Shown here: in pieces, positions 24,690 through 59,397 of the stretch
Position numbering within the stretch: position 1 is the stretch's first letter
Layout: every line of letters begins with the position of its first letter
DNA from: an uncultured Bacillales bacterium
Lineage (GTDB): Bacteria > Bacillota_I > Bacilli_A > RFN20 > CAG-449
NCBI GenBank assembly: GCA_945929875.1
Contig: CAMEOO010000003.1
Location: forward strand, 1-61,949
Length of the DNA: 61,949 nt
Direction: 5' to 3'
The notes under the pieces: generated by a model
Databases searched by the model: none
What the model was told of the DNA's origin: nothing
Seen by the model: the letters and a program-made list of their open reading frames with translations, nothing else
Position numbers and translations under genes: made by a program

Positions 24690-24692
24690 TTT

Positions 24693-28406: not shown

Positions 28407-28436
28407 TTGACATAATATTTAGGATTATTTTATAAT
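28407..28436 (+). promoter_or_regulatory. Sigma-A-type promoter TTGACA-18-TATAAT for the fibre/adhesin locus
   Basis: TTGACA at 28407-28412 and TATAAT at 28431-28436. Three more TTGACA hexamers lie at 28290, 28354 and 28364. Confidence 0.5.
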
Positions 28437-28447
28437 TAGTGTACTAA

Positions 28448-28461
28448 TGAAAGCGCTAACA
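28448..28461. promoter_or_regulatory. Consensus cre (CcpA) site just downstream of the -10 box
   Basis: A-TGAAAGCGCTAACA fits WTGNAANCGNWNNCW at every constrained position. Confidence 0.6.
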
Positions 28462-28556
28462 AAGAAAAAAATTTAAATAGTGTTTTTATTTATCGATTTT
28501 TATTTTATAAGTCTATTGATTATGAAAATGAAAAATAAGAAAAGGAGGTTAGAGAA

Positions 28557-29597
28557 ATGAATGAAAGCAATGTAGAAGTTAGTAATAAACCAATATACCC
28601 TTTTATGAAAAAATCTAATTCTTCTAAAGGAAGTAAAGTGTCAACAAAAGCGAAATCTCGCGGTAAAGAAATTCGTGTTGATACCCACTACAAAGAGAAA
28701 GTAGAAAGAGAAAGAAAGTTAAAGAGATTACAAGAGGCTAGAAAAAAAAGAGAACAACAAAAACTTCTTGAACATGAAGAGTCATTAAAGACTTTCAAGA
28801 AAAAGGCAGTTAAGACTGCTTTAAAAAATGAAGAGCTAGCTCAATCATTAAAAAACAAAGAAGTTAAAGTTAAATCTAATGGCCAAAAGGAATCTCAAGA
28901 AAGATTAAAAAGAGCGACTAAAACTCCTTTCTCCTACTACTATAACGTTAGTAAAGATGTTAGTAATAACATAGGATATTGCAATATTTATCAATGTATG
29001 AACGATAAATTTGCGGGTAGGTTATTCCAACCTCAATACTTCGCTATCGCAGAACAATCGGAAAGAATCTTCGAAATCAATAAACTATTGATTATTCATT
29101 CTATCGGTATTGCATTGTTACATGAAGAAACTTCCTTCTTAGTGCAAGTCTCACCTAAATATTTAGAATCCGATGAGCGCTATAAGGAACTAGAAAGTTT
29201 ACTTGAAAATGCACCTACTAATCTAATTCTCTGTATGGATTCTAGACCATTAATCCTTACAGGAGATGAAGGAAGAAAAAGATTATTAGAGTTAATTGAA
29301 AAATATAAATTAAGTCTAATGCTTGATAATCCTGAAACTGAAAGACTATCTGTTCTATTTGACTATCCAATTAAATATATTCGATTAGATGGAAGGTACT
29401 ATGTAGATCGAAGTGAAAACAAAAAGCAATTCATTAAGATAATTAATGAGTATTGTAAAGGTTTAAAAATCGATCTAGTAGCAAAATACATCGACACTAA
29501 AGAAGATAAATCTTGGATGTTAGCAAATGGAGTCAGATATATTGAAGGGGCGAACGTTCAAACAAACAAAAGTAATGTAAATGCAGCATTGAAATAG
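28557..29597 (+). CDS. Cytoplasmic protein: Lys/Glu-rich N-terminal half + degenerate (catalytically dead) EAL-like domain
   Basis: Colinear with the EAL blocks: 'FQPQYFAIAEQSERIFEINKLL', 'LVQVSP', 'LILCMDS', 'LSLMLDNPETERLSVLFDYPIKYIRLDGRYY' (in place of DDFGTG...KiD) and 'LVAKYIDTKED...GVRYIEG' (in place of AEGVE...QG). Confidence 0.5.
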   Translation: MNESNVEVSNKPIYPFMKKSNSSKGSKVSTKAKSRGKEIRVDTHYKEKVERERKLKRLQEARKKREQQKLLEHEESLKTFKKKAVKTALKNEELAQSLKNKEVKVKSNGQKESQERLKRATKTPFSYYYNVSKDVSNNIGYCNIYQCMNDKFAGRLFQPQYFAIAEQSERIFEINKLLIIHSIGIALLHEETSFLVQVSPKYLESDERYKELESLLENAPTNLILCMDSRPLILTGDEGRKRLLELIEKYKLSLMLDNPETERLSVLFDYPIKYIRLDGRYYVDRSENKKQFIKIINEYCKGLKIDLVAKYIDTKEDKSWMLANGVRYIEGANVQTNKSNVNAALK

Positions 29598-29637
29598 AAA
29601 CTATATGATTTCTAAACTAAAGAAAGGAGGTAGTTAA

Positions 29638-30738
29638 ATGGCAAGTGCAAAAGGAATTAATAAAATACTTGATTCTGAATTAAAAGAAAAATTAAAAGAA
29701 GATGATCGTAATACTAACAATAAAGCTAAAAGAAGACGTATGACTGTAGTTATTATGATCATTATCTTGCTCTTCTCAATTATAGCTTCCATTTATTACC
29801 TTATCGATTCTATGGTTGTAGAAAACTCATATAAGGTCTATGTAAATGGAACAAATAACGCTAAAGGTTTGAGATTATCTTACGATTCTGATTTTGGACA
29901 AGGATATAAAGATATCACCGGTAAAGGAATTAGACTAGAAGATAATTCCAATAGTGGATTAGGATTTGGAGCTTCTAAAATTGATTATGGTGATCAATCT
30001 TATTCCGCGATGGATTATTTGATGTCTGTGTGTTCAAATCAAGAAGGCACCATTAAAACTAACGTTATTGATAAAGGTCAAGCTGGTGAAGCAAACGGCG
30101 ATCAATTCTTAGTTAGTAAATTCTATTTAAAGAATACATTAGAAGTTGATGAATTAAATGGTGTTACTGAAGAAAGCGTTACAGTAAACTACGCTATTCA
30201 ATTAACAATTGAAAATAGCACAAAAAACGCTTTAAGCGCATGTAGATTTGCCATTATCGAAGTACTAGATGAAGAGAATATCTATAAGGTTGTAGAAGAT
30301 GAACAAAATAGAGAAACCATTATTGATAACAATGCATATAACATGTCAGTTATCGCTCAACCTAAAATCAAGCATCTAGAAAATGGAGATATGCAAATCA
30401 ATAAAGGTGATGAACCTGATTCTGAAGAATATGTAGGCTCATTAATTAATGGTCAATATACAGATGATGAAGAAGCATTACTAGTTAAAAATCCAAAGAA
30501 TAAAGATGAAGACTGGAAATGTAAAAACCTACATTATGAAGAAGAAAAAAGACAATGGTATTACAATACTGTTGAACACGAGACAGAAGAAAGTAAACAA
30601 GTATTTTCTATTAAGCCACAAGAGCAAAAAGCTTATGTTGTAGCTACTTGGTATGAAGCCTCTGATCCAGATCACACAGACGCGATCAAAGGAGGGTATG
30701 TCTCATTTAGTTTCACTTTCTATGCAGTGGAAAAATAA
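29638..30738 (+). CDS. N-terminally membrane-anchored extracellular protein, TasA/camelysin-like features (TapA-analogue candidate)
   Basis: One TM ('VVIMIIILLFSIIASIYYLI'). 'FLVSKFYLKNTLEV' and C-terminal 'GGYVSFSFTFYAVEK' resemble TasA 'FQFENNGS' and 'KLQFSFEATQ'. Confidence 0.35.
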   Translation: MASAKGINKILDSELKEKLKEDDRNTNNKAKRRRMTVVIMIIILLFSIIASIYYLIDSMVVENSYKVYVNGTNNAKGLRLSYDSDFGQGYKDITGKGIRLEDNSNSGLGFGASKIDYGDQSYSAMDYLMSVCSNQEGTIKTNVIDKGQAGEANGDQFLVSKFYLKNTLEVDELNGVTEESVTVNYAIQLTIENSTKNALSACRFAIIEVLDEENIYKVVEDEQNRETIIDNNAYNMSVIAQPKIKHLENGDMQINKGDEPDSEEYVGSLINGQYTDDEEALLVKNPKNKDEDWKCKNLHYEEEKRQWYYNTVEHETEESKQVFSIKPQEQKAYVVATWYEASDPDHTDAIKGGYVSFSFTFYAVEK

Positions 30739-31035
30739 GCATAGAACATTAAATAGTTTTTTATAGTTTTAGGAGGATAAGACTAATATTAAGTATTAAC
30801 TAGAATTAACTAGAATAAGGCGTATATAAGTTATTGTTAAAATTTAATAGCTGTTAATTATATTGTGTGAAATTGCTACATTATATGTCGATTTAAATAT
30901 AACAGCTGAATATTTAAATAATTAACAGTTATAAATATAACACTAGATAATATTTAAATTATTCATAGAATCCTAGAATTATAGGAATAAAAAATAATAA
31001 TCTAAAAAAATTATTAAGAAAGGAAATTATAAATT

Positions 31036-31713
31036 ATGAAAAAAAGATTATTTATTACATCTGCTCTAATGACAGCTGTAATGGCTGCTTCATTAGCAAC
31101 AGGAACTTATGCATGGTATGTAACTGGTGCTGGCACAGGAGTATCACTTGTAGAAGCAACATCTAAAGTTAATACTGCTGCTAATAGTTATTCAGCTGGT
31201 GCTGTTACATTTAATGCTAATATATCTTCTACAGGAGCTCCAAAGTTAACTGATAATAAAGGAAAAACCTATTATTATTTAGGTTCTGTTGGAACAAATA
31301 ATAAAGCAGAAGATACAGGTGCTCAACTTACTGATAAGTATGCTACAGGTACAGTTTCTATTACAGGAGTTCTAACCAATGGAGCGGGTGCTTCTGCAAC
31401 TTATAAGGAAGTAATGACTTCATTAATTGGTAAAAAATATAAGATTACAGTTACATCTAGTGATGCAAATGTAAAATTCTTTGATAGTGTGCCAACTGCA
31501 GAAGGGTTCAATTGGGCAGGCGCTAAAACTTGGTCTAGCCAAGTTATTACGATTGCTACTGAACATGCTAACCAAACTGATAATACCGCAGGAAATGTTT
31601 TAGGTAATACTAATTTCTATTGGGGATATAGTGGTGAAGATAAATTGCAGGAACAAGCTAAGGATATTACTTTAACTGCTACTATTACAGAAGTAACAGA
31701 ATCTCAAGGATAA
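31036..31713 (+). CDS. Small secreted Ala/Thr/Gly-rich protein with a SipW-cognate-type signal; candidate major fibre subunit
   Basis: 'MKKRLFITSALMTAVMAASLATGTYAWYVTG'. Has a 297-bp leader of its own, a strong RBS and a terminator immediately downstream. Confidence 0.5.
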   Translation: MKKRLFITSALMTAVMAASLATGTYAWYVTGAGTGVSLVEATSKVNTAANSYSAGAVTFNANISSTGAPKLTDNKGKTYYYLGSVGTNNKAEDTGAQLTDKYATGTVSITGVLTNGAGASATYKEVMTSLIGKKYKITVTSSDANVKFFDSVPTAEGFNWAGAKTWSSQVITIATEHANQTDNTAGNVLGNTNFYWGYSGEDKLQEQAKDITLTATITEVTESQG

Positions 31714-31729
31714 AAGGTTTGCTTATATT

Positions 31730-31760
31730 AGAGGAGACTACGCCTCTCCTCTTTACTTTT
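31730..31760 (+). terminator. Hairpin terminator after the 225-aa gene (interrupted T-run, probably leaky)
   Basis: AGAGGAGA-ctacgcc-TCTCCTCT then TTACTTTTT. Confidence 0.55.
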
Positions 31761-31849
31761 TAAAGGTAATAAATGTATTGATAACGTATTTATTATTTTT
31801 AAAAAGTAATGTAATATATTAGATGTAGAATTTATAGGAGAAATACATT

Positions 31850-33052
31850 ATGAGTAAAGAAAAGATTAAAAAAGAGAAAAAAGAAAAAAGCAAAGTAAGA
31901 ATTTGGATAGAAAATATCTTAGAAGTTCTTATAGTTGTTGCTTGTTTAGCTTTCTCAATAATTATGATAGCTAGTCCAGGAGGAGTAAAAGAAGATTACT
32001 CTAAGATTAATGTTAGCTATATGCCTGTTTTATCTAATTCTATGTCTGGCACATTTGAAGAAGGAGATTTAATTTTTGGTAAGAAGATTAATAGAGATGA
32101 TGATGGAAACTGTGAAATATTAGATATTGGTACAGTAGCGATATTTGTTGTTAATGATGTTTCTCAATCTGAGTATCTTTTTATTAATACTCACAGAATT
32201 GTCGGATATTATTATGAATATAAAGATTCTCATGATGGGAAATATTATGCTGGTTATGACAAAATGTTTAATGCAGAAGGTGTTACAAATGCAGAAACTG
32301 CAAAATCGTTTGCTGATTCTCAAGGCTGGGAAGATTTTAAAATTATAAGATATGTTACTTCTGGAGATAATAAATCTATTTATTATAAAAATGGAGATGT
32401 CAATGGTGAATTGATAGATTCTAGTAATATTAATGTAGTAGATAGTTATAGACCAGAGGTTAATGATGTCATAGGCACTTGGACTGGTAAAAAGCTAAGT
32501 GGTGTAGGTGGAGTTATTACATGGATTCAAAAACCATTGAACTTCTTCTTAGTTATTATGATTCCATTAATACTATTATTCTTATATAACATTTGGACAG
32601 TTATTAAATATATATTAGAAGTTAAGACTGAAAAAGCAAGAAAATTAGCTTTAGAAGAAGCTCAAGCTAATGCTATTGATGAAGAGGAAATTAAACGTAA
32701 AGCAGTAGAAGAATATATGAAGAAGATGGGTATTGATCCTTCTAGTTTACCTACTGAAAATAAAGAAAGTGATGTAAAAGAAGAAAGTAATAAAGAAGAA
32801 GTTACTTCTTTAGAAGTAAAAGAAGAAGAAACTCCTAGTAAAGAAGAAAATGAAGAAGTTGTAGTTGAAGAAATAAAAGAAGAAGAAAAAGTAGAAGAAC
32901 CTGTAGTAAAGAAAGCTCCTACAAAGAAGAAAACTACTACTAGCAGTTCTACTAAAAAGACTACTACAACTACAAAAAAGTCAACTGGAACTAAAAAGAC
33001 TACTAGTTCTAGTAAGAAAACTACAAGTAAAAAAAGTAGTGAAGTAAAATAA
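31850..33052 (+). CDS. sipW: SipW-type (ER/archaeal-type) signal peptidase I with an insert and a ~150-aa Lys/Glu/Thr-rich tail
   Basis: 'VLSNSMSGTFEEGDLIFG' Ser box, 'THRIVGYY' His box, 'TSGDN', and a second TM ('FFLVIMIPLILLFLY'). 400 aa versus about 190 aa for B. subtilis SipW. Confidence 0.8.
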   Translation: MSKEKIKKEKKEKSKVRIWIENILEVLIVVACLAFSIIMIASPGGVKEDYSKINVSYMPVLSNSMSGTFEEGDLIFGKKINRDDDGNCEILDIGTVAIFVVNDVSQSEYLFINTHRIVGYYYEYKDSHDGKYYAGYDKMFNAEGVTNAETAKSFADSQGWEDFKIIRYVTSGDNKSIYYKNGDVNGELIDSSNINVVDSYRPEVNDVIGTWTGKKLSGVGGVITWIQKPLNFFLVIMIPLILLFLYNIWTVIKYILEVKTEKARKLALEEAQANAIDEEEIKRKAVEEYMKKMGIDPSSLPTENKESDVKEESNKEEVTSLEVKEEETPSKEENEEVVVEEIKEEEKVEEPVVKKAPTKKKTTTSSSTKKTTTTTKKSTGTKKTTSSSKKTTSKKSSEVK

Positions 33053-33110
33053 TATTTGTTATTGATCTAATGTGTTTAGATGAATATATAGCGTAAAGGA
33101 GCGCAAAAGT

Positions 33111-34703
33111 ATGTTTTGGCAATTTTTAGGTGAGTTTATCGCGGTATTTGCCCTAGGGTTTTTAGGGATATTTATCAGTTGGTCTGGTAAAGCCTATGGA
33201 GGACTTATTGGTGGAATTATTCAAATGTTTAATGTTCCTCAATATATCGCTGTTGTAAACAAGTATAAAGAGTATTTTGGTCCAGGAGAATGGATTGGTC
33301 TTGCGGCTATAATTTTAGTGTTCCTTGCGGTATTAGTTGGATTATTATGGGTTATCATCCATTATTCAATTAGACTATATAAACGTTTATTTGTTAATAA
33401 GCAAAACGATGATGATTTAGTTGATGAAGTTAATAGATTAAGAAGAACTGTTATTAGAAATAATAAAGAGAGAAATAAATTAATTGATCTTTGTTTAAAA
33501 AGTGGGGCTTCTTCTAGTAGTGTTTCTTCAGTGTTAAATGATGAAGAAGAAACTTCAGAAAAGAAAGAAGAAAGTCAAGAGCAAGAAAAAGAAAATGTTA
33601 ATAATGGAGAATCTAGATTCTTTAAGCTTACTGAAGTAGATGCTTTATATAGAGATAATCCACCTCATTTTACTTATGATAATGATATAACTTTAGAAGA
33701 GTTATGTGATAGATTTAGAAACTGGGCGTGTTCAGAGATGCATTTATACTATGAACCTAGAGTAATTAGATTGTTCTTCGCGGCTTTTGCTACCACTAGA
33801 ATTATCATTTTACAAGGTATATCTGGTACAGGTAAAACTTCCCTTCCTTACGCGATTGGTCAATGGTTAGATAATCCATCAACGATTGCTTCTGTTCAAC
33901 CTTCTTGGAGAGATAGAACTGAAATCTTTGGTTATTTTAATGAATTTACTAAGAGATTTAATGAAACTCAAATTTTAAAGAAAATGTATGAAGCTAGGTA
34001 TAATGAACAAATATATTTGACAGTTATCGATGAAGCTAACATCGCTCGTGTTGAATATTATTTCGCAGAATTATTATCTATTCTAGAAATGCCTTCTAGA
34101 GATAACTGGATCGTCGATATTTGTCCTTCTGGTTGGGAAAATGACCCTAAATTTATTGAAAAAGGTAGATTTAAATTACCTGAAAATATGTGGTTCATCT
34201 GTACAATCAATAACGATGACTCTACATTTGCTATTTCAGATAAGGTTTACGATCGTGCTATTCCAATTAACATCAATAGTAAAGGTATTCCTTTTGATGT
34301 ACCTGAAGAAGAAAGAAACAAAGCTCATGAATGCGTTTCATATAAGCATCTAGAAGCAATGTTTAAAGAAGCTCAAGAAAAATATAAAGTCAGTGAAGAA
34401 AATATTAAGAAATTTAACGATATGGATGACTATGTCATCGAACACTTCCGTTTAGCATTTGGTAATCGTATCGTTAAACAATTAAAGGAATTTGTTCCAG
34501 TTTACGTTGCTTGCGGTGGAACTGAAATTGATGGTTTAGACTATGTTCTATGTAATAAGATTTTAAGAAAATTTGAATCGTTAAACTTGGCTTACATTCG
34601 TGATGAAGTCGATGGATACATTCAATATTTAAATGATCACTTCGGCGAAGAAAATATGAAAGAATCTAAAGAATATCTAGAAAGATTAAAGAAATTATTC
34701 TAA
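33111..34703 (+). CDS. Membrane-anchored McrB-family AAA+ NTPase
   Basis: Two to three N-terminal TM helices, then 'ILQGISGTGKTS', 'VQPSWRDRTEIFGYF', 'LTVIDEANIARVEYYFAELLSILE' and 'FICTINNDDS..ISDKVYDRA', colinear with the E. coli McrB motifs. Confidence 0.75.
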   Translation: MFWQFLGEFIAVFALGFLGIFISWSGKAYGGLIGGIIQMFNVPQYIAVVNKYKEYFGPGEWIGLAAIILVFLAVLVGLLWVIIHYSIRLYKRLFVNKQNDDDLVDEVNRLRRTVIRNNKERNKLIDLCLKSGASSSSVSSVLNDEEETSEKKEESQEQEKENVNNGESRFFKLTEVDALYRDNPPHFTYDNDITLEELCDRFRNWACSEMHLYYEPRVIRLFFAAFATTRIIILQGISGTGKTSLPYAIGQWLDNPSTIASVQPSWRDRTEIFGYFNEFTKRFNETQILKKMYEARYNEQIYLTVIDEANIARVEYYFAELLSILEMPSRDNWIVDICPSGWENDPKFIEKGRFKLPENMWFICTINNDDSTFAISDKVYDRAIPININSKGIPFDVPEEERNKAHECVSYKHLEAMFKEAQEKYKVSEENIKKFNDMDDYVIEHFRLAFGNRIVKQLKEFVPVYVACGGTEIDGLDYVLCNKILRKFESLNLAYIRDEVDGYIQYLNDHFGEENMKESKEYLERLKKLF

Positions 34704-34731
34704 TTATTAATTGTTGAAAGAAGGATTTTTG

Positions 34732-37081: not shown

Positions 37082-37108
37082 CTATTCATTATAATAGCTT
37101 CTTTTTTG
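37080..37108 (+). terminator. Weak hairpin terminator
   Basis: AGCTAT-tcattata-ATAGCT then TCTTTTTTG. Confidence 0.4.
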
Positions 37109-39482: not shown

Positions 39483-39501
39483 AAAAAGAAAGGAGAAGCC
39501 A

Positions 39502-40521: not shown

Positions 40522-40537
40522 GAAAGGAGGAAAAAGC

Positions 40538-52500: not shown

Positions 52501-55500
52501 TTCTTCATACGATATTGAAGATGGAATGATTACTTTAACTAAACCTTCTTTAGAAAATTATACGTTTGTTGGATGGTATAGCGATAATCAACTAAAAACT
52601 CCAATAAGTGAATTTGATTATCACTCAGGTAATATGACTATCTATGGATTATTGCAACCAGTAAAAGCGGTTTACATTGATTTAAAACATGTCTTGAATA
52701 ATGAAGGTGGTTCGATCTATCCAACTTCTACTTATAACTACGTAATGGCTTATTATAATCAAGCTAATTATTCATATTATTTCTCTAATGTAACAGGTAA
52801 TATTATGACAAGGCATTATGATATTGGAATTTATTATGCCGAATTACCAAGAAATGAATATAATCAAGCATATTTACTAATTGTAGAAAATTCAAAGTTA
52901 TCAAATTTAACTCTTGATAAATATTTAACAAGTGATGAGAGCAAAACTAATTTCGCTAATATATATGCAAATTCCGGTTTGATCAATTTGAATTATACTT
53001 ATAGTGGAAGATATCAAAACTTAATTATCTTTAAAGACAATTCTTCGGGAATTAATTCTAGCGATTACAGTCAACTAAAAACGGAAGAATTGACATTTGG
53101 ATATTCAATTCAATCAAACTACATTACTACTTATGATGGTAGTAATAAATTAAACGAAGCATTAAAGAATCCTAGCTTCCCACTTGAAGGAATCACTATC
53201 GATCAAATGACAGTTTACGAAGCTAAAAAAAGTGGATTTATAGAGCTTAAGGGTAAAAATCCAACTGATATCGGTGTTTACTTTGTAAATATTCCTTATA
53301 TTAAGATCGATGGAACTATTGATCCTGATTTGCATAAATTAATCTTGATTGGTATCGACTTTGCTGAGTTTGATATGTCCGGTATTACATTTGAAAATCA
53401 AGTATATGTTCGAGATGGTGGAGCAAAGCAACTATTCATCACCGGTTTATTAGATGAAAAACTTGAAGTTACATACACTTACTATAAACAAGATGGAAAT
53501 GTATTAAATGGTTATCCAGTAGAAGCTGGAACTTATAAAGTTAAAGCAGAGTTTAGTATTGCTTCTAAATATAGCGATATTGCAAGAAACTATAAACTAC
53601 CTGAATCAATGTATGCTACATTAATTATCTATGATAGTGAAAAATCGTTATACACATATACTAACTCATCAGGTAATAGCGTATCTTTATACTTTGCTCT
53701 ATATGTCAATGATAAGATTGAAGCTATTTTGACAGCTCAAAGCGGTAATTCTAATATTTATGAATTATTGAATTATTCATTAAAACAAGGCGATAGCGCT
53801 GTAATTAAAGATTCTAATGGAACATCATATTTATATTGGACAAATACGGATATTTCTACAAATCATCCATTTATCGTCAATGAGGATCAACAATACTCAT
53901 TCTACTTTGATGTTATAGGTGCAAAAACTACGGTTACATATCAAAGTAATATCAAGTCATATGTTAATTATTACTTATATGTTGATGGAGTTATCGCTGG
54001 TCAATTCTATGTAGATACCACATTTGTTGAAAATAGCGACGTTAAGAATCAATACCTATTAGATCATGTCTTTAATGGTAATGAAACTATTGAAATCTAC
54101 TATGGTAAAAAAGGTGAATCAGGTTTTAAATTAATTAATGAATGGGACAATTATGAGCAATTAGAAATCGATATTAATGCTTTTAGTTACTTAACGGAAT
54201 TTTCAGGGGAATACACTTTATACTTGAAAGAACTTAAACTTGCGGACGAAACTACAAAAATGCAAATTTATGTTAAGCTACCACGAGTTCCAGTTTACGT
54301 TACCACTCCATTATCATTTAACGATGTTTATTTATATTATTGGAATGATCAAATGAATAACTCTTGGCGTGGAGAAGCGATGACATTAATTGAATCGATG
54401 ACAAATAATGTTTCTCATACATATATGGGATATATCGATATAACCGCGACAAGTTTAATTTTCAACTTCTACATCGATGGAAATGACAGTTTACAACAAA
54501 CAAAAGACTTAGCTTATACATTTAGAAAGAATTATTATATTCTTGATGAAGACTACAGCGCTACTGTTGTAGAGTGGTTAAAATACACTAAATATCAAAA
54601 TACTTATCAAATTACAACAGATATTAATGAAGAAGCGACCACAAAAGATCAAATTAAGAGTATTAGCGTCAATAGTTTAACTGGTAGAGTTGACTATAGT
54701 TCATTAACTAAAACTGTTACTGTCTTAAAATTAGATAAGATTATCTTTGATGAACTTGGCTTAAGTTATGGTAAAGCAACTTTTGAAGTCGTCGTTACTT
54801 ATGGCGATAATTCTAAAACGACATTTACTATTGAATATATAAGTGATGGAACAAAGATTAATCCTCTATTAGTCTATGATCGAGAAGATTTCTTAAATAG
54901 CGTATATAAAGATGACTTCATTAACAGTGATGGAATTTACTATTTACAAACTGGTAACTTTGAATTATCAAATAAAAATGAGGTAACTGGATTATATGAT
55001 AATACTCCTAGACCTTATAATTCAATTTATCAATTTAATGGTATCTATGATGGTGGAAATAAGACGATTACTTATAATGATGGTACATTTAACTTAGACA
55101 ATTCTAACGGTATCTTTGGAGTAGTAGGAAAAGATGGAAAAGTAGTAAATTTAAATATTGATATTTGCTATGGCGATGATGTAACTGAAACTCCTAGTGG
55201 AACATCATATCACCCTACTAGCGCTTACGAGTTCTATATTGGCTCAGTATCTAGCATTAACTATGGAACAATCGATTCAGTAAATGTCTATTCATCTAAA
55301 GGAATGATAAGATTCTGGGCTATTCAATACTATGGTGGAATTACTGGATTAAATGAAGGTATCATTAACAATTGTAAGGTTACATTAAATTATCAAATTT
55401 ATGATTACAGTGAAAATTGTTCTCGCGCAGTTGGTGGAATTGCTGGATATAACCACAATATTATTACTAATTGTACTGTCGCTAAAGCTAACGCTGCTAA

Positions 55501-58500
55501 CCCATTTATTTTAAGTGATAAACCAGAAGCTAGATTTACTGGCGCTATTGCAGGTATTGAAAATGGTGCCTATAAAGATAAGAGTGATGCTAGTTTGATT
55601 TATCCTGGTTGTTCTTATAATGTGAACTTAACTTTAAATGATTCGAATGTGAATCATGATAAGTCTGATGGAACTACAGAAATTAGTTATGGTGAAAAAG
55701 TAATTGCTACTGTCAATCTTGAATTAATTAACGATTGGATTTTACAAGATTATGGAGAAAATAAAGTATCTGGATTTAAGGTAAGCTATTATACTTCAAA
55801 GGATAGTTTTATCACTAATATGTATTACATGCTAGGATATAATATTTTTGAAGAAAATCCACAGATTGATATCTTTAGGGGAACTAGCTATATTAAATTG
55901 GAAAGAATTACTTATCAAGTTACAACAACTACTTCTCAGGGTAAACAATCCTTAAATGGAGTATTTAGCTTTGATGCGAATAATGTAATTAATGTTAACG
56001 ATAGTGACTTAAAAGATTTAACAAGTGATGCTTCAAATACTCTTGCTATCTATAAGATTACTAGCGGTCTTTCTTACAAGGTACTATCATCAAATAGAGA
56101 AATAACTAACTACGTCATGGTCTATGACAAGACTAAAGTAGGAGTATTTAGCTCAGGACAAGTAATGAAAGTAGAAACCTATGGATCAGATAATAAAATG
56201 ATTAGTATCGATCTATATACTATTGATTTAGACTATGAAAATGAGATTAAGATCTATGCTGGCGCAACTAAATTAATTATTTCTAGATATTCTTCTAGTG
56301 AAGAAACTACTACGGAAGACTATGTGTTTACTATTAATGAAGTTAAAAATAAATCACTATATTTATTCATCGACAATAGTTCAAATAATAGTTATTCATG
56401 GGGCTATGATGGATCTATTAATCATACTGATATTACTGCATATAACTACTTCAATAATGTAGTATCAGAAGAAACAAGTTTAGTATATGTCACATACTTT
56501 GATAAAGATCACAATATTATCACGGAAGCTGAATTTGATTTGTCTTATAATGGAAATAGTTTCTTAGTATTTGAAAACACTTCTTATATGGAGATTAGTT
56601 CTACTATTGGAAAGAACAAATATGTTTCAATTATCGTTAAGATTAAAGAAAATGTCACTAATACCGATAAGCTATATTTCTGGTATAATAATGAAGAAAA
56701 CTTTGATACATATTGTTGGATTAGTAGTGATAAGCCTGCTTCTTATAATGAATTAAATGTTAAATATCTATTAAATGAGTTTACTACAAACAAAGTAGTA
56801 AAAGTAGTAAGTTACGATGCTTCAAATAATGCTATTAGTATTGATGTTTATTCAAATACTGATAGAATAAAAGTTTACTCCTCAACAAGTAAGATGCTTA
56901 TTTCTTCATTTACTAGTAATGGAAATAACTTTAATGTTGTAGTCTCATCTATAGATACAAATAAGACATTATGGATTTACAAAGTTAATGAAATTAGTAG
57001 TTTACTTCCAACAAGTGGAATGAATTATGCCTTTGTTGAAGATAAAGTAGCAAGTTCAAATATTAAGTTTATCAATGAAGAAGTAACATTTAAAAATGGA
57101 AATAGTAGCCTATTAGTAATTAACTATGATTCTAGTAACAATATCATTAATTTATCAACCTACGAATATGCATTAGAAACAAACATTAATGTTTATAGTG
57201 GGACTAGATATATCCTTATTGTTAAATTACTACCTAATGGATGCTCTACTTCTACTTCGATTGATTATTCAACCTATAGTGAAGATAAACCAGTATTAGT
57301 TCTAGATAATGAAGATCATTTATCATGGCAAGCTAGCGATTATCTACCAATTATCGATGAATTTGAAATGCAAATTCAAATCGAAGATTGGAGTAAAACT
57401 ACTTTAATTTATTACTACAATTCTCGTGGTGAATTAATTAAAGAAAAAGAATATCGAACTGCTCCTGTTATGAGTATTTCTCTATATAACAACACAAGTT
57501 ATATGGAAGTTATCTCGAAAGTTGGAGAAACAATTCAATATAAAGTGCAAGCTTCTTCTATCGATACGGGAAAGATTTTATTCATCGTAAAGAACTTAGA
57601 TGATCAATATGTTGGCGTATGGTCTTATGCAATCGACTTACTAATCACTTCTTACATTCCAGTAATTTATGAAGTAAATATCTATAATAAGTTTACCGTA
57701 ACTTGCTATAATTCTGATGGCATTATAATTAATACGATCGTTTATACGATGAATGAGAATAATTACTACTTCTACGATGGAACTGAAAAGATTAAGATAG
57801 TTGCAACAAATGGTAGCGACATCACTAATACATTCAACATCAAAAATACAAGCTTTGACTTGAGTAAGTCTCTTCACTTTGCTTATGATAGCGAAAACAA
57901 TGTCACCGTTTCATTTGGCTTAAATGCCCACGAAGTAAGTGGTGAAAAAGAAGATTACACATTAACTTTAGTCAATACAATTCCTTGGTGGAGTGCAGAT
58001 AACGCTTTAACAAAGATCTATTACATGAATGGATCTAGCGTGGTTACTATCGATACTTATGAATATCAAGATGAACTAGAAATTAAGATCTATAAGAATA
58101 CTAGATCAATCATCATTGCTAGATTAGTCGGTAGATATAATGAAAGTAGTGCAATTAGTATTAATACTCTTCAAAAGGGTAAGACCTTAAAATTATCTTC
58201 ACCTTCAACTGGTAAAGTAGTTGCTTCTTGGATTACTACTTCTGATCAAGAAGAAGCTAAGACTACTTATCTATATCTTGATCCTTCTACAAGTTGGGCA
58301 AGTAATGAAACTAACAAGTATCGTTACGCTTTATATGCTTGGAATAGTTCGGGTAATAGTTGGTTTGACTTTACTTACGACAAAGTTTCAAAATTGTACC
58401 GCGTATCATGGGATGAGGTAATTGTCTTTGATCCTACCGCAATTATCTTTGTTCAATTTAATGAATCTAATGTTACAAATAGCTTTGATTATAAAGTAAA

Positions 58501-59365
58501 TCAAACCGATAACGTCTTCTTAGAGAATATCGATATTTCTACAAAGAATGTATATGTAATCTCTAGCTCAACTTCTGGTAGCTTCTCTGAAACTTATTAT
58601 GAAGAATTTACTAGAGTCTATCTAAATATCTCTAAAGCGGTTGCTTGGTCTAGCTACTATGTAATCACCTATAGAAATGTTGAAGAATACAACTTAGGTA
58701 TCTATCAGCTTGAACAAATGAAGTTCTCTAATATTTATTCAGCATACTATGCAGATATTTATAACGAGTATAAAGGTAACATTATCTTTACTTCTAATCC
58801 AAGTGAAGCTTACGTAATTAAGACAAAAGTCTTAACTGACTATAATGAACTAACACCAAAATACTTCTTATATAATGTTGGTTATGACGAAACTGGAGAT
58901 ACTGTTACTACTGAAGGTGAATGGATGGCTGTTAATGAAGTCAGTAGCGCTTCTAAGTCATACAAGTACTCTTGGTACTTAGTTGGATCATTTAACTCAT
59001 GGACGGTCTGCGATAGCAAGTATGGTTTGATCAAAGTAGGAGAATCAAAATATAATGATAAGACTACAAATATCTACTATGGCTATCTATCATTATCCGA
59101 TAGCGCCCAAGTTAAGATTGTTAGAGATGCTGAGTGGCATGTAAGCTATGGTTACAATAATAAGTTAGCAAATATTAGCGATAGTATCTCTTACGACACA
59201 AGCTTTGTTCAAGCGGGATTCGATGGACAAAATATTACTCTAGATATAGGTAATTACTTGATCGTATTTGAAGCGACGCAAAGTGAAACTGATCAAAAAA
59301 GAAATGATGAACAAGTATTTAAAGCACCTGAAAATGCATGTATCCATATCATTAAGTTATCTTAA
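40538..59365 (+). CDS. Giant (6275 aa) multi-repeat surface protein / putative glycan-binding adhesin with a SipW-cognate-type N-terminus
   Basis: RBS AAAGGAGG 7 nt before ATG 40538. Uninterrupted 18.8-kb frame. Recognisable BspA-type LRR, Listeria-Bacteroides repeats, MBG-like, GLUG-like and many aromatic CBM-like modules. No LPXTG or C-terminal TM. Confidence 0.85.
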   Translation: MKQKMSKKNIMTLLMAMVFSFTTIVGAIVVSFSIWSGNKQSVPVVSEDFNASEDDFTFYAAIENIANDGGYDYYPLDSVPEDLSSLIKGLAVVRYEAFNKTAYIPSYPEVTILGKKYNVDGAHNYPVIHILKGYYSTSDYLGSNGLARNDSIETLIIPSTVNYIYEGAFAQMKNLKEVTILGTVNYNYVLNISNYISKTSLNIWDSNQTVGKDDPVDILQLNDEKTAYVSTVNLNTYNITTGSDGTTGIINYTSKTRGRQFESGVNYTTPIYGASEGQSSLTYDDHLYIEKGAFTNDNDASIAIDISANVDSYVFSTNHNVKFIWQDPNHCANTYSYSYETNKGDNQIFLFDQFNGLLRYNGEKNLYYTTFIPKVAMSSIEFSDTSTKESIGTFTYAFQPNVKYYLELTKQGSKFALNVKSISYVLRYKETDSSLNWTEKNLVLNTSETSVEEYSPSEILTLSNYPILFVHEKINDDLNTDSYINKFELDITNASYSSDCTSFDIRFSPSHVYQSIHYYSHVENEVESLRSITTKQRLNAEKVYYLNEVKKMVGDTTKGNEQVIITFPNNSNLPSLFVLAYSVYNTQEAYVYYDGKSPATNEKSFNEMTLNTSTNEFEYTFDLTYGSPMYISFIPGTYAQITGYPDYVVNGTTSTALETTLLDSSTNEPSSSKKRIYFDMKYGTSMDSTNDGSYNETTKFTYNYKYYLWGWVGDSEGAWYTFNFFDQNCTLWYTDIPSDLTKGIIVRRKTSYTDSNGNTITPTTGAWKSNEGVVNRTGNIDLTLGNYIQFNRWGSEQIDSIDSIIVDVIDTNNSRRIYFDNSLAKDNNSFDSSTNTYNNSIIYYAYIFGSNEYKAWFKFYQYDTTCTLWYADIPVTDPSGSTIVKGIITRQRAGTAGTFDNVNDFYNKTEDITNLNSNNFYTFKSWVQNTNKFECSASNDNTKGIVNENLSHAQNNTYLIFENYGTSGNTVYVPLDENMGYDGKRVFAKVGTTFYQASELAYEFTLNNTDGVSRSISILKDTIVSAKIYNPYTNSYYDSTFGYSDTETGTNGDKKNLFEKTQDGKIHFLNNANVNIYFKVWLTESNVSSHRWWFSYKSNAIDDVKTAASQPDESFEKTSTLFSFSNDGDKIGTASDESLHSDVLDFGTSTSYTYFDATRDQGMISGQLTKISGNDRNVIFINITDDILNHPSLNKANLGVRIQTYTVNWLQIKQNTKYHGSIKLNKNNYMVESLSNYNNNYFDVEIYDKTTNKIYFATKDLTNAETKNTITLGHKYEINSYTDTTPTRTLYYYDGTTNNEILHTDGNTYTLSTIGSEIVDLSNVYFNLSSITSDLNIINIYVYDASGNLLNENDPLTSSNGLNYDESRDQYYFSKTYKSSTIAKFKIVLKTFKIQTKLSHIEIVKSYTLTRNFANTSFEEYVYSGELSSELNNNKYVVSIFKDQGSTIGSTSLKFYGYSSSDDSIGIYKLNNENCFVLFTPNSNTGYQKIFYNIYDESDTLIGTLYYDENRTEEKGYQSFVGNVPLNGKESSYFYIKSSGENPEIVGVFLLLSDGSIKHVSGTENAQMSSIISILGSGSSALENVELPVSDQVYASIQDPSANASELIYPYYLVGDFNNWRISNEYGLIPNGQNFSWGSRFSLTTGLNQAYYYMINNVYIEQGQKFKISNGQYYISIEETASRDAPSSAERNQGAALEINSYNFTNAGFTFEDNGFITVKKSGYYNLSMRYWSVEFISDRLVSSANFRIGYNTNTSKTETVDIYFKNEMGWDNVNYYAWNDEDTSKTISEGSLIPLDGSQTDEAGNPIKQTINGDMDWYKVSYKYSYADTIPNKIYFYTNTDSNNVFDRTIDLDFVIDDDVEKSKTMFFTPNSVNGKVATQSQRTMYVNIGSELSSKNYVIAAYLTDYDKNSTFIKLDKINSEIGLYQLNVNIRYKTIQIVALVTNTSEYTVDKKSNKLVYVSRSMTISPVQNYYYLSTGVDKTFEDSLDVATNYLNLKSIVQTRSANYYVDLANSTDSITKRVNIYSAEGNYLCFDNLDPSTYVKGTIIKETFESNGNKKETPVCSLTLSKENNLFDITYLDEVNKTFQATLSSSNYTYFHKYIYSNSTPYLFYLRTSENWSSNKYGLLFDKDNDAFVIEGITLKAGIGIKLFDYSGKSYAISTTLANFKYDENDRSSLVVNATSLYTIIARVSSDSNNISLNLYTTESYFSTLGSGYSDTTLEVRDEKGNLVGSYPMIQTINARNYYYDVYLKPGYELTVYDPNISFKDNANVYTLSPSETSSLYRVYFASTGGMKSSRADDTSEWKNWKHQYINIIKKATKTIEFSPSAIFNGAYITTVTDAVVNEEKQSDSYNVKINEQTNLFYVNTDNNSNKVALSWNNTNSSSSESATSVYSACISTTGFNETVYIYDKDLILIDKMTIVFPGSYYVYFCQKAIYRSSTSDALSCVTAERIQGESVYSILVGEVEYDENTDEFSGSYKEYELNNNYNINFDEYSPENNVSISNNIDLKKNPIYVIDDNYNIVTLVDNITVYDYRLNTAAFDKNTNYYIYENGQYIKKDITAFTPQVDYYVLSIYSTSNLESGVYELNYSIDNRRRKDDQYFVFTYLTFTRIPSSPIRLYYYQDDVYNPNEDYYASEVYVTSDFVSGASYELTEVTSFDPNKIYYIENSEGSYDQVMISVFEEGKTYYTLEKATTYDPSKTYYTYLYSKVNISNFLPNVDYYYYAMATEEGYSPEKDYYVIENGNYVPGTPNIVDQDYYVMKKATTFNNGLEYYIIDKTGEAKKYIKATLQVKEGLYSSSSFDDSTGYDPSIKDVYKDDGTNNYVKTPSVLVGTSESGSDYYQTSNLNNSNQYSLLSEGTKLYTTSDNNTYNESANVTISSSSDIYKSNLQEVNKVSDLVTSENGEIDASTVYYKKSGNDYIRVGKINDLVLKDGYYNMSIGNSFNSVKHHQVLDGTYYVKNGDKYEVASSILLQSNTYYTYSETIKSFNNSSTYNSIKNTNTIYTDSGCTKELDKIPGVSSGYYNELKGEVGSDKWIYYKLTIAELEDLYNKLDGASRIYFGYPDDSSNKFLSYNSVDYYLYTYNGLWYRQCASNTTYNPSTTYYVNYNGEYVNYKTLSDQESITIAVNISTKGLSNIGDTSGNNIYNAISKGTTYDSSLKYFIKSGTSYTQVNDITFDSTYYYLESTASLRNVYSSSDTYYTKNSDNTYSVVSDSGTITLGNTYYQLKYTPSSKTYDNGNTYYEYSNGSYVKVNNSDVQFSETYYYGFEKVADNETYDPNVSYFKLNGDNYSLITNTEDNYLTFSNTYYTFNDVTGNSYSSTSKYYTFDGTRYTLASAIKFDSNYYYNFKPTSGNYDSSLSYFAKNGSGGYLVTSEVVDLTYCYELDHVEASGSKYDSKIEYCEKIDNYYQVKTFDIASSLLGYYTLEKETGKFDSSKVYYAKNNYLTKTTDANETNISSGDFYIIKDQYTSESFYDSGLTYYVSIDDLNTLREANISVDGTYYDIATTPSTTKDPNKKYVTISYEKLAIKIVDEGSYSQPYDEENPYLGYYGLYQQYVEANQSITLATYEEIGGYAPEGKAFAGWATALSSNPSIVYADGKVINVGQGEGLVLYPVFADATYTVYTSIGPGYTIVKPDGSKMGNVVRSQNQEVKFMVEASTGYDKNSIVVSLLDKKNQVLVENLSSSNGIYTIPSTLMSDCYINVSISANTYTITFDKTYEGGTFTLANDSVEVVYGTNTTTPSISVPQGLLEGYSFTGWYYGNTKITNEYGTLLNRWSYDFDVTLVAKFKETLYFVLDTIDSNGNQVLPSEIMSVGKGETVRFTVSKTLAGYTLNNVKAYNERMEDITNTENFKFTIYNESYSFTMPSNTNITVIITYDIVDYSINYSLNGGYISTGSNPTSYNVLTNTFTLINPERLGYTFLGWTGTNITLTNNVTIAKGSTGNRSYFASWAPEKYSVTYEFPGLDSDLISSISNNNPSSYDIEDGMITLTKPSLENYTFVGWYSDNQLKTPISEFDYHSGNMTIYGLLQPVKAVYIDLKHVLNNEGGSIYPTSTYNYVMAYYNQANYSYYFSNVTGNIMTRHYDIGIYYAELPRNEYNQAYLLIVENSKLSNLTLDKYLTSDESKTNFANIYANSGLINLNYTYSGRYQNLIIFKDNSSGINSSDYSQLKTEELTFGYSIQSNYITTYDGSNKLNEALKNPSFPLEGITIDQMTVYEAKKSGFIELKGKNPTDIGVYFVNIPYIKIDGTIDPDLHKLILIGIDFAEFDMSGITFENQVYVRDGGAKQLFITGLLDEKLEVTYTYYKQDGNVLNGYPVEAGTYKVKAEFSIASKYSDIARNYKLPESMYATLIIYDSEKSLYTYTNSSGNSVSLYFALYVNDKIEAILTAQSGNSNIYELLNYSLKQGDSAVIKDSNGTSYLYWTNTDISTNHPFIVNEDQQYSFYFDVIGAKTTVTYQSNIKSYVNYYLYVDGVIAGQFYVDTTFVENSDVKNQYLLDHVFNGNETIEIYYGKKGESGFKLINEWDNYEQLEIDINAFSYLTEFSGEYTLYLKELKLADETTKMQIYVKLPRVPVYVTTPLSFNDVYLYYWNDQMNNSWRGEAMTLIESMTNNVSHTYMGYIDITATSLIFNFYIDGNDSLQQTKDLAYTFRKNYYILDEDYSATVVEWLKYTKYQNTYQITTDINEEATTKDQIKSISVNSLTGRVDYSSLTKTVTVLKLDKIIFDELGLSYGKATFEVVVTYGDNSKTTFTIEYISDGTKINPLLVYDREDFLNSVYKDDFINSDGIYYLQTGNFELSNKNEVTGLYDNTPRPYNSIYQFNGIYDGGNKTITYNDGTFNLDNSNGIFGVVGKDGKVVNLNIDICYGDDVTETPSGTSYHPTSAYEFYIGSVSSINYGTIDSVNVYSSKGMIRFWAIQYYGGITGLNEGIINNCKVTLNYQIYDYSENCSRAVGGIAGYNHNIITNCTVAKANAANPFILSDKPEARFTGAIAGIENGAYKDKSDASLIYPGCSYNVNLTLNDSNVNHDKSDGTTEISYGEKVIATVNLELINDWILQDYGENKVSGFKVSYYTSKDSFITNMYYMLGYNIFEENPQIDIFRGTSYIKLERITYQVTTTTSQGKQSLNGVFSFDANNVINVNDSDLKDLTSDASNTLAIYKITSGLSYKVLSSNREITNYVMVYDKTKVGVFSSGQVMKVETYGSDNKMISIDLYTIDLDYENEIKIYAGATKLIISRYSSSEETTTEDYVFTINEVKNKSLYLFIDNSSNNSYSWGYDGSINHTDITAYNYFNNVVSEETSLVYVTYFDKDHNIITEAEFDLSYNGNSFLVFENTSYMEISSTIGKNKYVSIIVKIKENVTNTDKLYFWYNNEENFDTYCWISSDKPASYNELNVKYLLNEFTTNKVVKVVSYDASNNAISIDVYSNTDRIKVYSSTSKMLISSFTSNGNNFNVVVSSIDTNKTLWIYKVNEISSLLPTSGMNYAFVEDKVASSNIKFINEEVTFKNGNSSLLVINYDSSNNIINLSTYEYALETNINVYSGTRYILIVKLLPNGCSTSTSIDYSTYSEDKPVLVLDNEDHLSWQASDYLPIIDEFEMQIQIEDWSKTTLIYYYNSRGELIKEKEYRTAPVMSISLYNNTSYMEVISKVGETIQYKVQASSIDTGKILFIVKNLDDQYVGVWSYAIDLLITSYIPVIYEVNIYNKFTVTCYNSDGIIINTIVYTMNENNYYFYDGTEKIKIVATNGSDITNTFNIKNTSFDLSKSLHFAYDSENNVTVSFGLNAHEVSGEKEDYTLTLVNTIPWWSADNALTKIYYMNGSSVVTIDTYEYQDELEIKIYKNTRSIIIARLVGRYNESSAISINTLQKGKTLKLSSPSTGKVVASWITTSDQEEAKTTYLYLDPSTSWASNETNKYRYALYAWNSSGNSWFDFTYDKVSKLYRVSWDEVIVFDPTAIIFVQFNESNVTNSFDYKVNQTDNVFLENIDISTKNVYVISSSTSGSFSETYYEEFTRVYLNISKAVAWSSYYVITYRNVEEYNLGIYQLEQMKFSNIYSAYYADIYNEYKGNIIFTSNPSEAYVIKTKVLTDYNELTPKYFLYNVGYDETGDTVTTEGEWMAVNEVSSASKSYKYSWYLVGSFNSWTVCDSKYGLIKVGESKYNDKTTNIYYGYLSLSDSAQVKIVRDAEWHVSYGYNNKLANISDSISYDTSFVQAGFDGQNITLDIGNYLIVFEATQSETDQKRNDEQVFKAPENACIHIIKLS
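48150..51160 (+). repeat. About 1000-aa block of degenerate Tyr-rich repeats ('..YD(P/S)(S/N)..YY....G.Y..V' alternating with '..F...YY.(L/F)..') inside the giant gene
   Basis: Read from the translation: for example 'TSFDPNKIYYIENSEGSYDQV', 'TTYDPSKTYYTY', 'TTYNPSTTYYVNYNGEYVNY', 'ETYDPNVSYFKLNGDNYSLI', 'LTFSNTYYTFNDV'. Confidence 0.7.
51210..52660 (+). other. Listeria-Bacteroides (InlB B-repeat / Flg_new-type) repeat region of the giant protein
   Basis: 'GYAPEGKAFAGWAT', 'LEGYSFTGWYYGN', 'RLGYTFLGWTGTN' and 'LENYTFVGWYSDN', each followed by a '...Y(P/A).(F/W)' strand. Confidence 0.6.
54850..55580 (+). other. GLUG-motif-like beta-helix region of the giant protein
   Basis: 'FNGIYDGGNKTI', 'GIFGVVG..GKVVNLNI', 'YYGGITGLNEGIINNCKV', 'AVGGIAGYNHNIITNCTV' and 'FTGAIAGIENG'. 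Confidence 0.5.
55700..58250 (+). repeat. Eight divergent ~100-aa tandem modules inside the giant gene
   Basis: Recurrent '..V..Y(D/N).....I.....Y.......I.(V/I)Y.(G/S)T...(I/L)I........I......K.L.(F/I/L)'. Examples: 'VKVVSYDASNNAISIDVYSNTDRIKVYSSTSKMLIS...NKTLWIY' and 'KIYYMNGSSVVTIDTYEYQDELEIKIYKNTRSIIIA...GKTLKL'. Confidence 0.6.
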
Positions 59366-59367
59366 TT

Positions 59368-59397
59368 AAAAGTGAGCGGTTTCCGCTCACTTTTATT
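59368..59397 (+). terminator. Strong rho-independent terminator closing the giant gene
   Basis: AAAAGTGAGCGG-TTT-CCGCTCACTTTT followed by ATTCTT. Confidence 0.9.

Follow-up and report, generated by a model that had tools for sequence, protein, structure and literature searches.

Two kinds of described system come close to the gene cluster considered here. The cluster spans ~31 kb of a stretch of DNA from an uncultured Bacillales bacterium (GCA_945929875.1, contig CAMEOO010000003.1, forward strand 1-61,949); the whole stretch, 61,949 nucleotides (nt) long with a GC content of ~29%, is called the window. The first kind comprises the fibre systems that depend on the signal peptidase SipW. The housekeeping signal peptidase LepB is described as tolerating an aromatic residue at P2' poorly and TasA as requiring SipW (PMC10269814), since leaders with aromatic P1'/P2' residues make poor substrates for the housekeeping enzyme. 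Polymerisation through the N-terminal segment has been proposed for TasA and BsaA (PMC9674648; PMC11580942), and in the model put forward for BsaA a membrane-tethered subunit is added and then cut by SipW, with a type IV pilus NTPase machine aiding export (PMC11580942). The second kind is CoCoPALM, to which Bell et al., 2024 (PMC11090510) give a name and one descriptive paragraph, the rest being deferred to a later paper. There, a large clade of McrB-like GTPases is described as fused to an FtsB-like transmembrane (TM) and coiled-coil segment; as outlined in that source, CoCoPALM has coiled coils on both the McrB and the McrC homologues, carries an NxD variant of the NxxD signature followed by a second D, is tied to signal-peptidase-family genes and occurs in Bacillota (PMC11090510). 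A literature search found no later CoCoPALM study.

The cluster in the window consists of ten + strand open reading frames (ORFs) between 28557 and 59365 and is best read, with a probability of roughly 60%, as a dedicated apparatus that exports, processes and probably polymerises surface proteins in uncultured gut Bacillota. A first-pass annotation of this DNA had likened the same ten genes to a greatly expanded tapA-sipW-tasA system; the gene layout that it gave was borne out by the ORF list and the translations, in which each of the N- and C-terminal strings that it quoted was also found. The genes and the two parts of g3 are as follows (aa, amino acids).

28557..29597, + strand: g1, 346 aa; cytoplasmic, K/E-rich in its N-terminal half and containing a degenerate EAL domain
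29638..30738, + strand: g2, 366 aa; type-II membrane protein with a basic N-terminus and a beta-rich ectodomain
31036..31713, + strand: g3, 225 aa; putative major fibre subunit
31036..31119, + strand: g3 leader, 28 codons, MKKRLFITSALMTAVMAASLATGTYAWY; also the 5' boundary of a variable cassette
31120..31713, + strand: g3 mature part, hypervariable predicted beta-sandwich, the putative major fibre subunit
31850..33052, + strand: g4, 400 aa; SipW-type signal peptidase 1
33111..34703, + strand: g5, 530 aa; membrane-anchored McrB-like GTPase
34711..36375, + strand: g6, 554 aa; McrC-like partner with a DUF2357 N-domain and no nuclease
36347..37081, + strand: g7, 244 aa; SipW-type signal peptidase 2
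37263..39482, + strand: g8, 739 aa; secreted, leader ending in VVTSFSWY
39502..40521, + strand: g9, 339 aa; secreted, leader ending in IVGSFAWY; putative minor component
40538..59365, + strand: g10, giant secreted protein, leader ending in IVVSFSIW; 6275 aa from the ATG (6295 aa from an alternative upstream TTG)

The secreted proteins are linked to one another by their leaders. Across the window, real genes contain the motif [ST][FY][AS][WIY][YWF] in four places, all at the end of an N-terminal hydrophobic helix (g3, g8, g9 and g10), against ~0.02 occurrences expected by chance in those leader-end zones for a motif that was chosen with the data already in view. All four fit the narrower form [ST][FY][AS][WI][YW]. 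In other species the aromatic motif persists in each of the four families, and the clostridial subunit leaders end in xAW[FY]. Five leaders of this kind had been counted at first; the count holds for the 225-, 739- and 339-aa proteins and the giant, whereas the 366-aa g2 has a different conserved motif, S[AGI]YYL, after a 34-residue basic N-terminus and a modelled helix of residues 5-62. When the g3 family is aligned with TasA by hhalign, the leader alone aligns and places GTYAWY over GTWAAF, which TasA is cut within, between GTWA and AF. Peptidase_M73, the camelysin/TasA family, is also matched below its threshold of 22.5 bits by 11 of the 44 g3 homologues, at best with 19.1 bits; all five matches that were located begin at protein residue 7, which is profile position 6, and four of them stop by residue 35-66 while one reaches residue 117. 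Those four thus take in little more than the leader and the cleavage motif. On this evidence the leader signal is of the TasA/camelysin kind, at or just below threshold, the mature proteins are without detectable TasA homology, and the cleavage step probably works as in the sipW-tasA system.

The g3 leader, nearly invariant across species, is followed by a hypervariable mature part. Among 44 homologues, 16 leader columns are invariant and 10 nearly so, and the mature parts are 25-30% identical. Codon differences in the leader between five species-level loci are mostly synonymous (70, against 24 non-synonymous), and the peptide itself is therefore under purifying selection; a DNA-level cause was rejected as the sole explanation of leader conservation because synonymous changes dominate. 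The DNA of two conspecific strains (L004 and L009) is 98% identical to the window up to 31119, the end of codon 28 and thus of the leader; the mature-coding DNA cannot be aligned to either strain, and alignment picks up again at 31714 (L009) and 31757 (L004), that is, at the stop codon or the terminator. The mature part of g3 is therefore a swappable cassette with borders at 31119 and 31714-31757. We propose that strains exchange it by recombination events with one end in the invariant leader codons and the other at the terminator. Such variability would fit pressure from phages or from immunity on a structure that is abundant and exposed; g3 is a likely target of phages and of host immunity, and the invariant leader next to a hypervariable mature part offers a ready strain-typing marker.

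The AlphaFold model of g3, built on the 44-sequence alignment, is a beta-sandwich with a mean predicted confidence (pLDDT) of 75.8, in which residues 15-25 and 36-42 are of low confidence or disordered. The earlier view of the 225-aa gene as laid out like a major subunit is upheld by its own promoter candidate and terminator hairpin.

30922..30951, + strand: internal promoter candidate, 10/12 consensus, inside the 298-nt leader region of g3
31730..31752, + strand: terminator-like hairpin after g3, 8-base-pair stem, 4 of the pairs being GC, followed by a T-rich tail

A riboswitch (for cyclic di-GMP, c-di-GMP, or another ligand) in the 298-nt leader region was considered and rejected, the Rfam scan of the window having matched 6S RNA alone. 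In sequence databases the mature g3 family counts 320 clusters among 1.84 billion representatives. A protein of 1498 aa (P0139) contains seven tandem copies of the mature subunit domain, and one member of the wider subunit family carries a type IX secretion system (T9SS) sorting domain; the fold is therefore reused in other surface proteins, outside this system. A PDB sequence search with the wider family (A3) returned nothing relevant.

Two SipW-type peptidases had been placed within the locus, and both assignments stand. The second, g7, scores 56.2 bits on TIGR02228 (cut-off 51.85) and matches the SipW model NF046067 at an expectation value (E) of 2e-21; it has two TM helices, and its cytoplasmic tail contains EEQAIQEYLDSLKK. 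The first, g4, gives sub-threshold matches to NF046067 and TIGR02228 (23 bits) that are split by an insertion; its boxes are intact (SNSMSG, THRIV and SGDN, with the Ser, His and GDN), and the clostridial homologues of g4 and g7 both pass TIGR02228 (62.3 and 60.7 bits). It also has two TM helices, with the insertion relative to SipW in its ectodomain, and a cytoplasmic tail in which EEIKRKAVEEYMKKMGI is followed by a K/E/T/S-rich region. Five Bacilli species have the motif EEIKRKAVEEYMKKMGI unchanged, and it can still be recognised in Clostridia; related A/T-I-E/Q-E-Y motifs occur in g7 and at the C-terminus of g6. Among the ORFs of the loci, 102,000 aa in total, the pattern [AVIT][IVL][EQD]EY has 24 matches, of which 23 fall in peptidase tails or in g6; both peptidase tails and g6 thus share a cytoplasmic motif. 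Between strains, g7 is 98-99% identical, and in g4 the ectodomain is 75-88% and the cytoplasmic tail 97-99% identical; the g4 ectodomain (32100-32700) may co-vary with the adjacent subunit cassette. In one clostridial locus (L011, 8571-9909) the ORF calls divide peptidase 1 in two, a first part of 167 aa and a second of 65 aa that bears the tail motif; the division may be real, or it may come from a frameshift or from an error of assembly.

Between the peptidases lies the McrB-like pair, whose assignment was confirmed for both proteins. The GTPase g5 has predicted TM helices at residues 5-23 and 65-83, then a charged helical linker and then an AAA+ domain; it matches NF008457 (E 5e-7), PDB entry 6hz4 (E 2e-6, in an alignment that takes in the Walker A, Walker B and signature regions) and the PADLOC model PDC-M26A (E 5.6e-36). 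Its Walker A GISGTGKT and its NNDDS signature are invariant in 120 homologues. It is 60% identical to its clostridial orthologues (L011, L012) and 75% to that of an Erysipelotrichaceae metagenome-assembled genome (MAG), and is the best-conserved protein of the system. More than 8000 database proteins are related to it at E <= 1e-5, a lower bound that already far exceeds the subunit family; the best 120 of these, at 58-99% identity and 86-100% query coverage, belong to MAGs that carry the labels Clostridia, Christensenellaceae, Clostridiaceae and Bacillales. The partner g6 is recognised by Pfam DUF2357 (E 2.8e-8, 33.8 bits against a cut-off of 23.3), carries a K/E-rich C-terminal coil region of ~170 aa and is 44% identical to the McrC-like proteins of L011 and L012. 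No nuclease was found in it: D...(D/E)xK residues are not conserved across 8 orthologues, and the PDB search gave no nuclease match. Its true start is probably the ATG at 34732, its relatives being called at 547 aa. On the - strand within g6, a 113-aa S/F/L-rich ORF (35865-36206) lies opposite the K/E-rich coding region and is almost certainly an artefact of low-complexity sequence.

Among the GTDB genomes scanned with the subunit alignment, relatives of the locus turned up in MAGs, one of Erysipelotrichaceae and others of uncultured Bacilli, and the core order recurs in 13 loci across Bacilli and Clostridia. On the homologue contigs the order is EAL protein, ~350-aa anchor, subunit, peptidase 1, GTPase, DUF2357 protein, peptidase 2, g8-like, g9-like and giant, so that the survey of the ten-gene order proposed at first pass came out in favour of its conservation. 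Most of the related loci examined hold a module of degenerate EAL protein, anchor, one or more subunits, peptidase, GTPase, nuclease-less McrC-like protein and peptidase. The peptidases flank the GTPase pair in the window and in 6 related loci and at least one is adjacent in 4 more, three related loci ending before the downstream flank of the pair. In the clostridial loci L011-L014, an EAL protein (not recorded in L013), an anchor and one to three subunits are found with a peptidase, the GTPase and the McrC-like protein; a second peptidase follows in L011, L012 and L014, and large Flg_new/Ig (immunoglobulin-like) proteins lie near the module in L011 and L013. The McrB-like pair had been listed with the EAL protein as additions to a three-gene operon. 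It is instead the most conserved element across loci and hence core, not accessory, and together with the EAL protein and the two peptidases it forms the conserved core of a separate, widespread system.

Between the window and the conspecific strains L004 and L009, g1, g2, g5 and g6 are 99% identical, cytoplasmic parts are 98-99% identical, and the regions that vary between strains map to ectodomains. In the Erysipelotrichaceae MAG (L002, 15647-19328), three ORFs of 436, 331 and 385 aa, none of which matches a protein of the window locus, lie between peptidase 2 and the g8-like gene, and the adhesin part is therefore separable from the seven-gene core. The window locus is a well-preserved member of this class of system with a lineage-specific adhesin extension.

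At the head of the module, g1 has a real EAL domain (52 bits on Pfam EAL against a cut-off of 31.3) that has lost its catalytic residues, as the first-pass description of a dead domain had it. The canonical catalytic positions (Glu, Asn, DDFGTG, Lys and EGVE) are those which we take to be general for EAL domains, and the motif positions were assigned by eye. The motifs are replaced in 7 aligned orthologues, with DDFGTG becoming LDNxE, K becoming R (YIRLD at the Lys motif) and EGVE becoming AKYID, and the residues are degenerate in every orthologue. An EAL gene of this type heads most of the related loci examined (none was recorded upstream in L013), and g1 is a probable regulator or c-di-GMP sensor. 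The next protein, g2, has one TM helix (residues 38-56); in its AlphaFold model (pLDDT 76.1) a single helix of residues 5-62 is followed by beta strands. Unlike the exposed proteins, it is 99% identical between strains including its ectodomain (98-99%). It is better taken for an uncleaved type-II anchor than for another substrate of the peptidases, and it is a probable membrane-proximal platform or anchor.

The remaining secreted proteins vary in size and content. Library scans gave no family match for the 225-, 366-, 339- and 739-aa proteins or for most of the giant. In g8, the N-terminal ~230 aa are subunit-like and the C-terminal ~500 aa are an extension missing in other species, where the orthologues (L008, L010 and L002) have 221-261 aa; hhalign pairs this N-terminal part with the g3 family over the first 34 mature residues (probability 26%, E 7e-4), a weak signal and the only one obtained among the mature parts of g2, g3, g8N, g9 and g10N. 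Identity between strains is 64-76% for g8, 75-89% for g9 and 75-89% for the N-terminus of g10; a comparison of whole proteins gives 66% for g8 and 86% for g9. No family or PDB match was obtained for g9 with Pfam, NCBIfam and a PDB sequence search, and PDB sequence searches with g1, g6 and g8 returned nothing relevant. The giant g10 is rich in Ser, Tyr, Asn and Thr (9-11% each) and carries Flg_new repeats, a GLUG motif and one CBM26 module by Pfam, its orthologues ranging from 1809 to 6315 aa. The glycan-binding character assigned to it depends on that single module, which barely exceeds the cut-off when scanned alone (28.5 against 28.1 bits) and makes a thin case; two GxFNxW segments of g10 and the C-terminal extension of g8 were examined as further carbohydrate-binding modules and have no Pfam match. 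Tandem Repeats Finder and self-BLAST found no internal tandem repeats in the g10 gene. As for its attachment, g10 has no C-terminal TM helix, and its three LPxTG-like matches all lie more than 380 residues from the C-terminus; no LPXTG indicative of sortase anchoring was found in g3, g8 or g9, nor near the C-terminus of g10. The N-terminus is thus the only visible tether of g10, since it has neither a C-terminal anchor nor an LPXTG.

Taken as an export and assembly apparatus, the locus would work as follows. Sec would insert four pre-proteins that stay tethered by their leader helices (g3, the abundant subunit; g8; g9; and the adhesin g10), and the two SipW/archaeal-type peptidases would cut them after the small residue that precedes the aromatic pair (between TYA and WY, SFS and WY, SFA and WY, and SFS and IW). 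The freed, flexible N-terminal segment of the 225-aa beta-sandwich would then link subunits into a fibre, in the manner of TasA/BsaA donor-strand exchange, and g8 (with its subunit-like start), g9 and the giant CBM26/Flg_new protein might join as minor or tip adhesins, with g2 serving as a membrane-proximal platform. A g5 hexamer and its activator g6 could dock on the [AVIT][IVL][EQD]EY-type tails of the peptidases and gate or power cleavage and assembly, and the degenerate EAL protein may couple the process to signalling. More specifically, and only tentatively, CoCoPALM may be an unrecognised pilus-assembly route of monoderms, in which a McrBC-derived GTPase motor at the membrane is coupled to two SipW-type peptidases through their tails and controls, step by step, how leader-tethered subunits are cut and polymerised, and an exchangeable antigenic subunit cassette supplies a fibre that bears giant carbohydrate-binding adhesins.

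If this were so, a restriction-enzyme motor (McrBC) would have been turned into part of an export or fibre-assembly machine, one common in uncultured gut Clostridia and Bacilli; a further assembly pathway would then join those of sortase pili, type IV pili and TasA-type fibres. The surprise would be that, in a gut surface system as common as this, the signal peptidases come with an obligatory and highly conserved GTPase derived from McrBC. CoCoPALM has already been named and is so far uncharacterised, and the locus gives it a concrete parts list and testable predictions.

Several observations weigh against this account. Polymerisation of the subunit is inferred and not directly observed. No sequence paralogy was found among g2, g9, g10 and g3. 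The best Foldseek matches of the g3 model in the PDB are integrin Ig-like domains, and weak ones (E ~7e-4, TM-score 0.31); for the g2 model, which was compared with the PDB by fold search only, nothing fell below E 0.026, and TasA was not in the best 50. The SipW-cognate signal model TIGR04088 (cut-off 19 bits) gave nothing at E <= 10 for the five window leaders and matched 0 of 31 members of the wider subunit family, the B. subtilis TasA used as positive control scoring 38 bits in the same library. On the side of the GTPase, no DivIC/FtsB Pfam match at E <= 0.1 supports an FtsB-like N-terminus in g5; NNDDS can be read as NxD with a second D or as NxxD; and the locus fits CoCoPALM as a class assignment made by the published description alone. 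Additionally, we know of no McrB-type GTPase that acts on a peptidase or a pilus.

An explanation without a fibre is unlikely and still the strongest of the alternatives. Here the leaders would anchor a variable coat and adhesins, and the peptidases would shed them on command under inside-out control by the EAL protein and the GTPase. It would account for the degenerate EAL protein at the head of most loci examined, which has a weak LapD match, for the conserved cytoplasmic tails of the peptidases, for the strongly conserved leader helix and for a giant adhesin whose sole visible tether is its N-terminus. On the other hand, one abundant small protein accompanied by minor ones with the same signal is the typical layout of a pilus, the disordered N-terminal segment ahead of the g3 beta-sandwich resembles that of donor-strand subunits, and the window holds no evidence of a c-di-GMP cyclase or of c-di-GMP binding.

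A true expansion of the tapA-sipW-tasA operon, as first annotated, is improbable. The small proteins would then be genuine TasA/TapA homologues, and the EAL protein, the McrB-like pair and the giant lineage-specific additions. The SipW-type peptidases agree with it, the leader motif is in register with those of TasA and camelysin, the leader of a clostridial orthologous subunit falls just under the TIGR04088 cut-off (18.5 bits), and the C. perfringens sipW-bsaA-bsaB-bsaC operon is presented as evidence that such operons may carry a large accessory protein (PMC11580942). Of the SipW-class, TasA-type signal claimed for the five leaders, the register of the motif stands, and the TIGR04088 search proposed with it gave no match. 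No window protein matched PF12389 (Peptidase_M73), NF046066 or the TapA and BsaA models (TIGR04087, TIGR04090) in the Pfam/NCBIfam scan at E <= 0.1, and the homology of the small proteins to TasA/TapA was not recovered by these family models or TIGR04088, with which the TasA control was readily found. The g3 family profile (A1) matches no TasA among PDB sequences, nor anything else relevant, and in Foldseek comparison TasA is not among the best 50 PDB matches of the 225-aa model, as it is not for the 366-aa one. The alternating C-terminal strand that had been likened to the TasA core is present in that both models end in a strand (residues 211-220 and 354-363, respectively), and it is a weak argument for TasA. 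Moreover, the supposed additions are the most conserved and most widespread parts. By every test run here, the locus is not in the TasA/camelysin family.

That g5 and g6 are a McrBC/CoCoNuT-type anti-phage system embedded in an unrelated surface operon is scarcely credible, since what commends it (the PDC-M26A match of g5, the defence island directly upstream at 18.8-27 kb and the description of the McrBC family as mostly defensive; PMC11090510) is set against a g6 with neither nuclease domain nor conserved catalytic residues, a g5 with two TM helices in place of a DNA-binding domain, its position between peptidases across loci at 60-75% identity across classes, unlike mobile defence genes, its 99% identity in strains whose adjacent defence genes differ, and the tail motif common to g6 and the peptidases.

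Around the cluster, a promoter candidate of the sigma-70 type lies ahead of the ten genes, and the 98% DNA identity to conspecific strains starts just before it, at ~28184-28200.

28407..28436, + strand: operon promoter candidate TTGACA-18-TATAAT, 12/12 consensus, the best in 27-41 kb

The location of all ten genes on one strand had been noted as a feature of the locus; from 14.2 kb onward nearly every gene of the window is on the + strand, so the strand bias is not specific to it. At 18799-26906 lies a defence island of genes for ATP-binding cassette (ABC)-type ATPases (AAA_21), mostly with small partner ORFs.

18799-19920 and 19790-20683: ATPase/partner pair
21012-22136 and 22123-22869: ATPase/partner pair
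23457-24689: ATPase gene, no partner ORF identified
24977-26308 and 26292-26906: ATPase/partner pair, matching AbiL/HEC-01/AriA-type PADLOC models (E 7e-28)

Among conspecific strains, L004 has other genes in place of the island and L006 the same. Between the island and the operon promoter, a 302-aa ORF (27207-28115) has a weak ZorC 'EH signature' match (E 8e-4) as its sole match; it is present in L006 and L007 and was not found in L004. A 6S (SsrS) RNA at 4605-4767 (48.1 bits against a gathering threshold of 46.4) is the only Rfam match in the window. The stretch 14245-18584, ~10 kb upstream of the locus, encodes a CBM26 protein and a pullulanase with PUD, CBM48 and alpha-amylase domains, and 59454-60458, directly downstream, encodes a choloylglycine (bile-salt) hydrolase; these genes point to a starch-using gut organism. 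The CBM26 module of g10 and the upstream pullulanase and CBM26 protein suggest attachment to starch particles in the gut.

Compared with the known systems, the locus resembles the B. subtilis tapA-sipW-tasA and B. cereus sipW-tasA-calY operons in having a dedicated archaeal/ER (endoplasmic reticulum)-type peptidase beside secreted proteins, leaders that read small-aromatic-small before the cut and aromatic after it, and a major subunit with accessory proteins. Its mature proteins are without detectable sequence or fold homology to TasA, camelysin and TapA, and unlike tapA-sipW-tasA it has two peptidases, an obligatory GTPase/McrC-like pair, an EAL-like protein and a W at P1'. Obana 2020 is said to be the source for the C. 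perfringens sipW-bsaA-bsaB-bsaC operon. That operon, as described, is alike in its SipW, its polymerising matrix subunit, its large accessory secreted protein and its low-GC anaerobic host (PMC11580942). The locus differs from it in that there is no TIGR04090 match, no conserved Lys/Asn/Glu isopeptide triad is evident in the 44-homologue alignment, and the NTPase is of the McrB type and encoded in the operon. A paper on a 'conserved pilin' of TANB77 (PMC11680825) was set aside as concerning an unrelated Tad/type IV system.

The LapD-LapG-LapA system of Pseudomonas offers a functional analogy only, with a degenerate EAL protein, a protease and an N-terminally held giant adhesin; the protease class, the topology and the phylum differ, and the locus has no HAMP/GGDEF or periplasmic output domain. 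With McrBC type IV restriction it shares the AAA+ GTPase core and the DUF2357 activator domain, whereas its pair is without a nuclease or DNA-binding domain, and its highly conserved GTPase is anchored in the membrane and keeps synteny with secretion genes. Several features seen here go beyond the CoCoPALM description: substrates whose cleavage motif is xAW[YF], a degenerate EAL gene at the head, a type-II anchor, a hypervariable subunit cassette behind an invariant leader, a motif common to the peptidase tails and a giant adhesin. The NNDD signature is compatible with 'NxD followed by a second D' without being diagnostic; the likeness to CoCoPALM lies in the GTPase with its N-terminal TM helices, in the DUF2357 McrC homologue with its coil, in the adjoining signal peptidases and in the occurrence in Bacillota.

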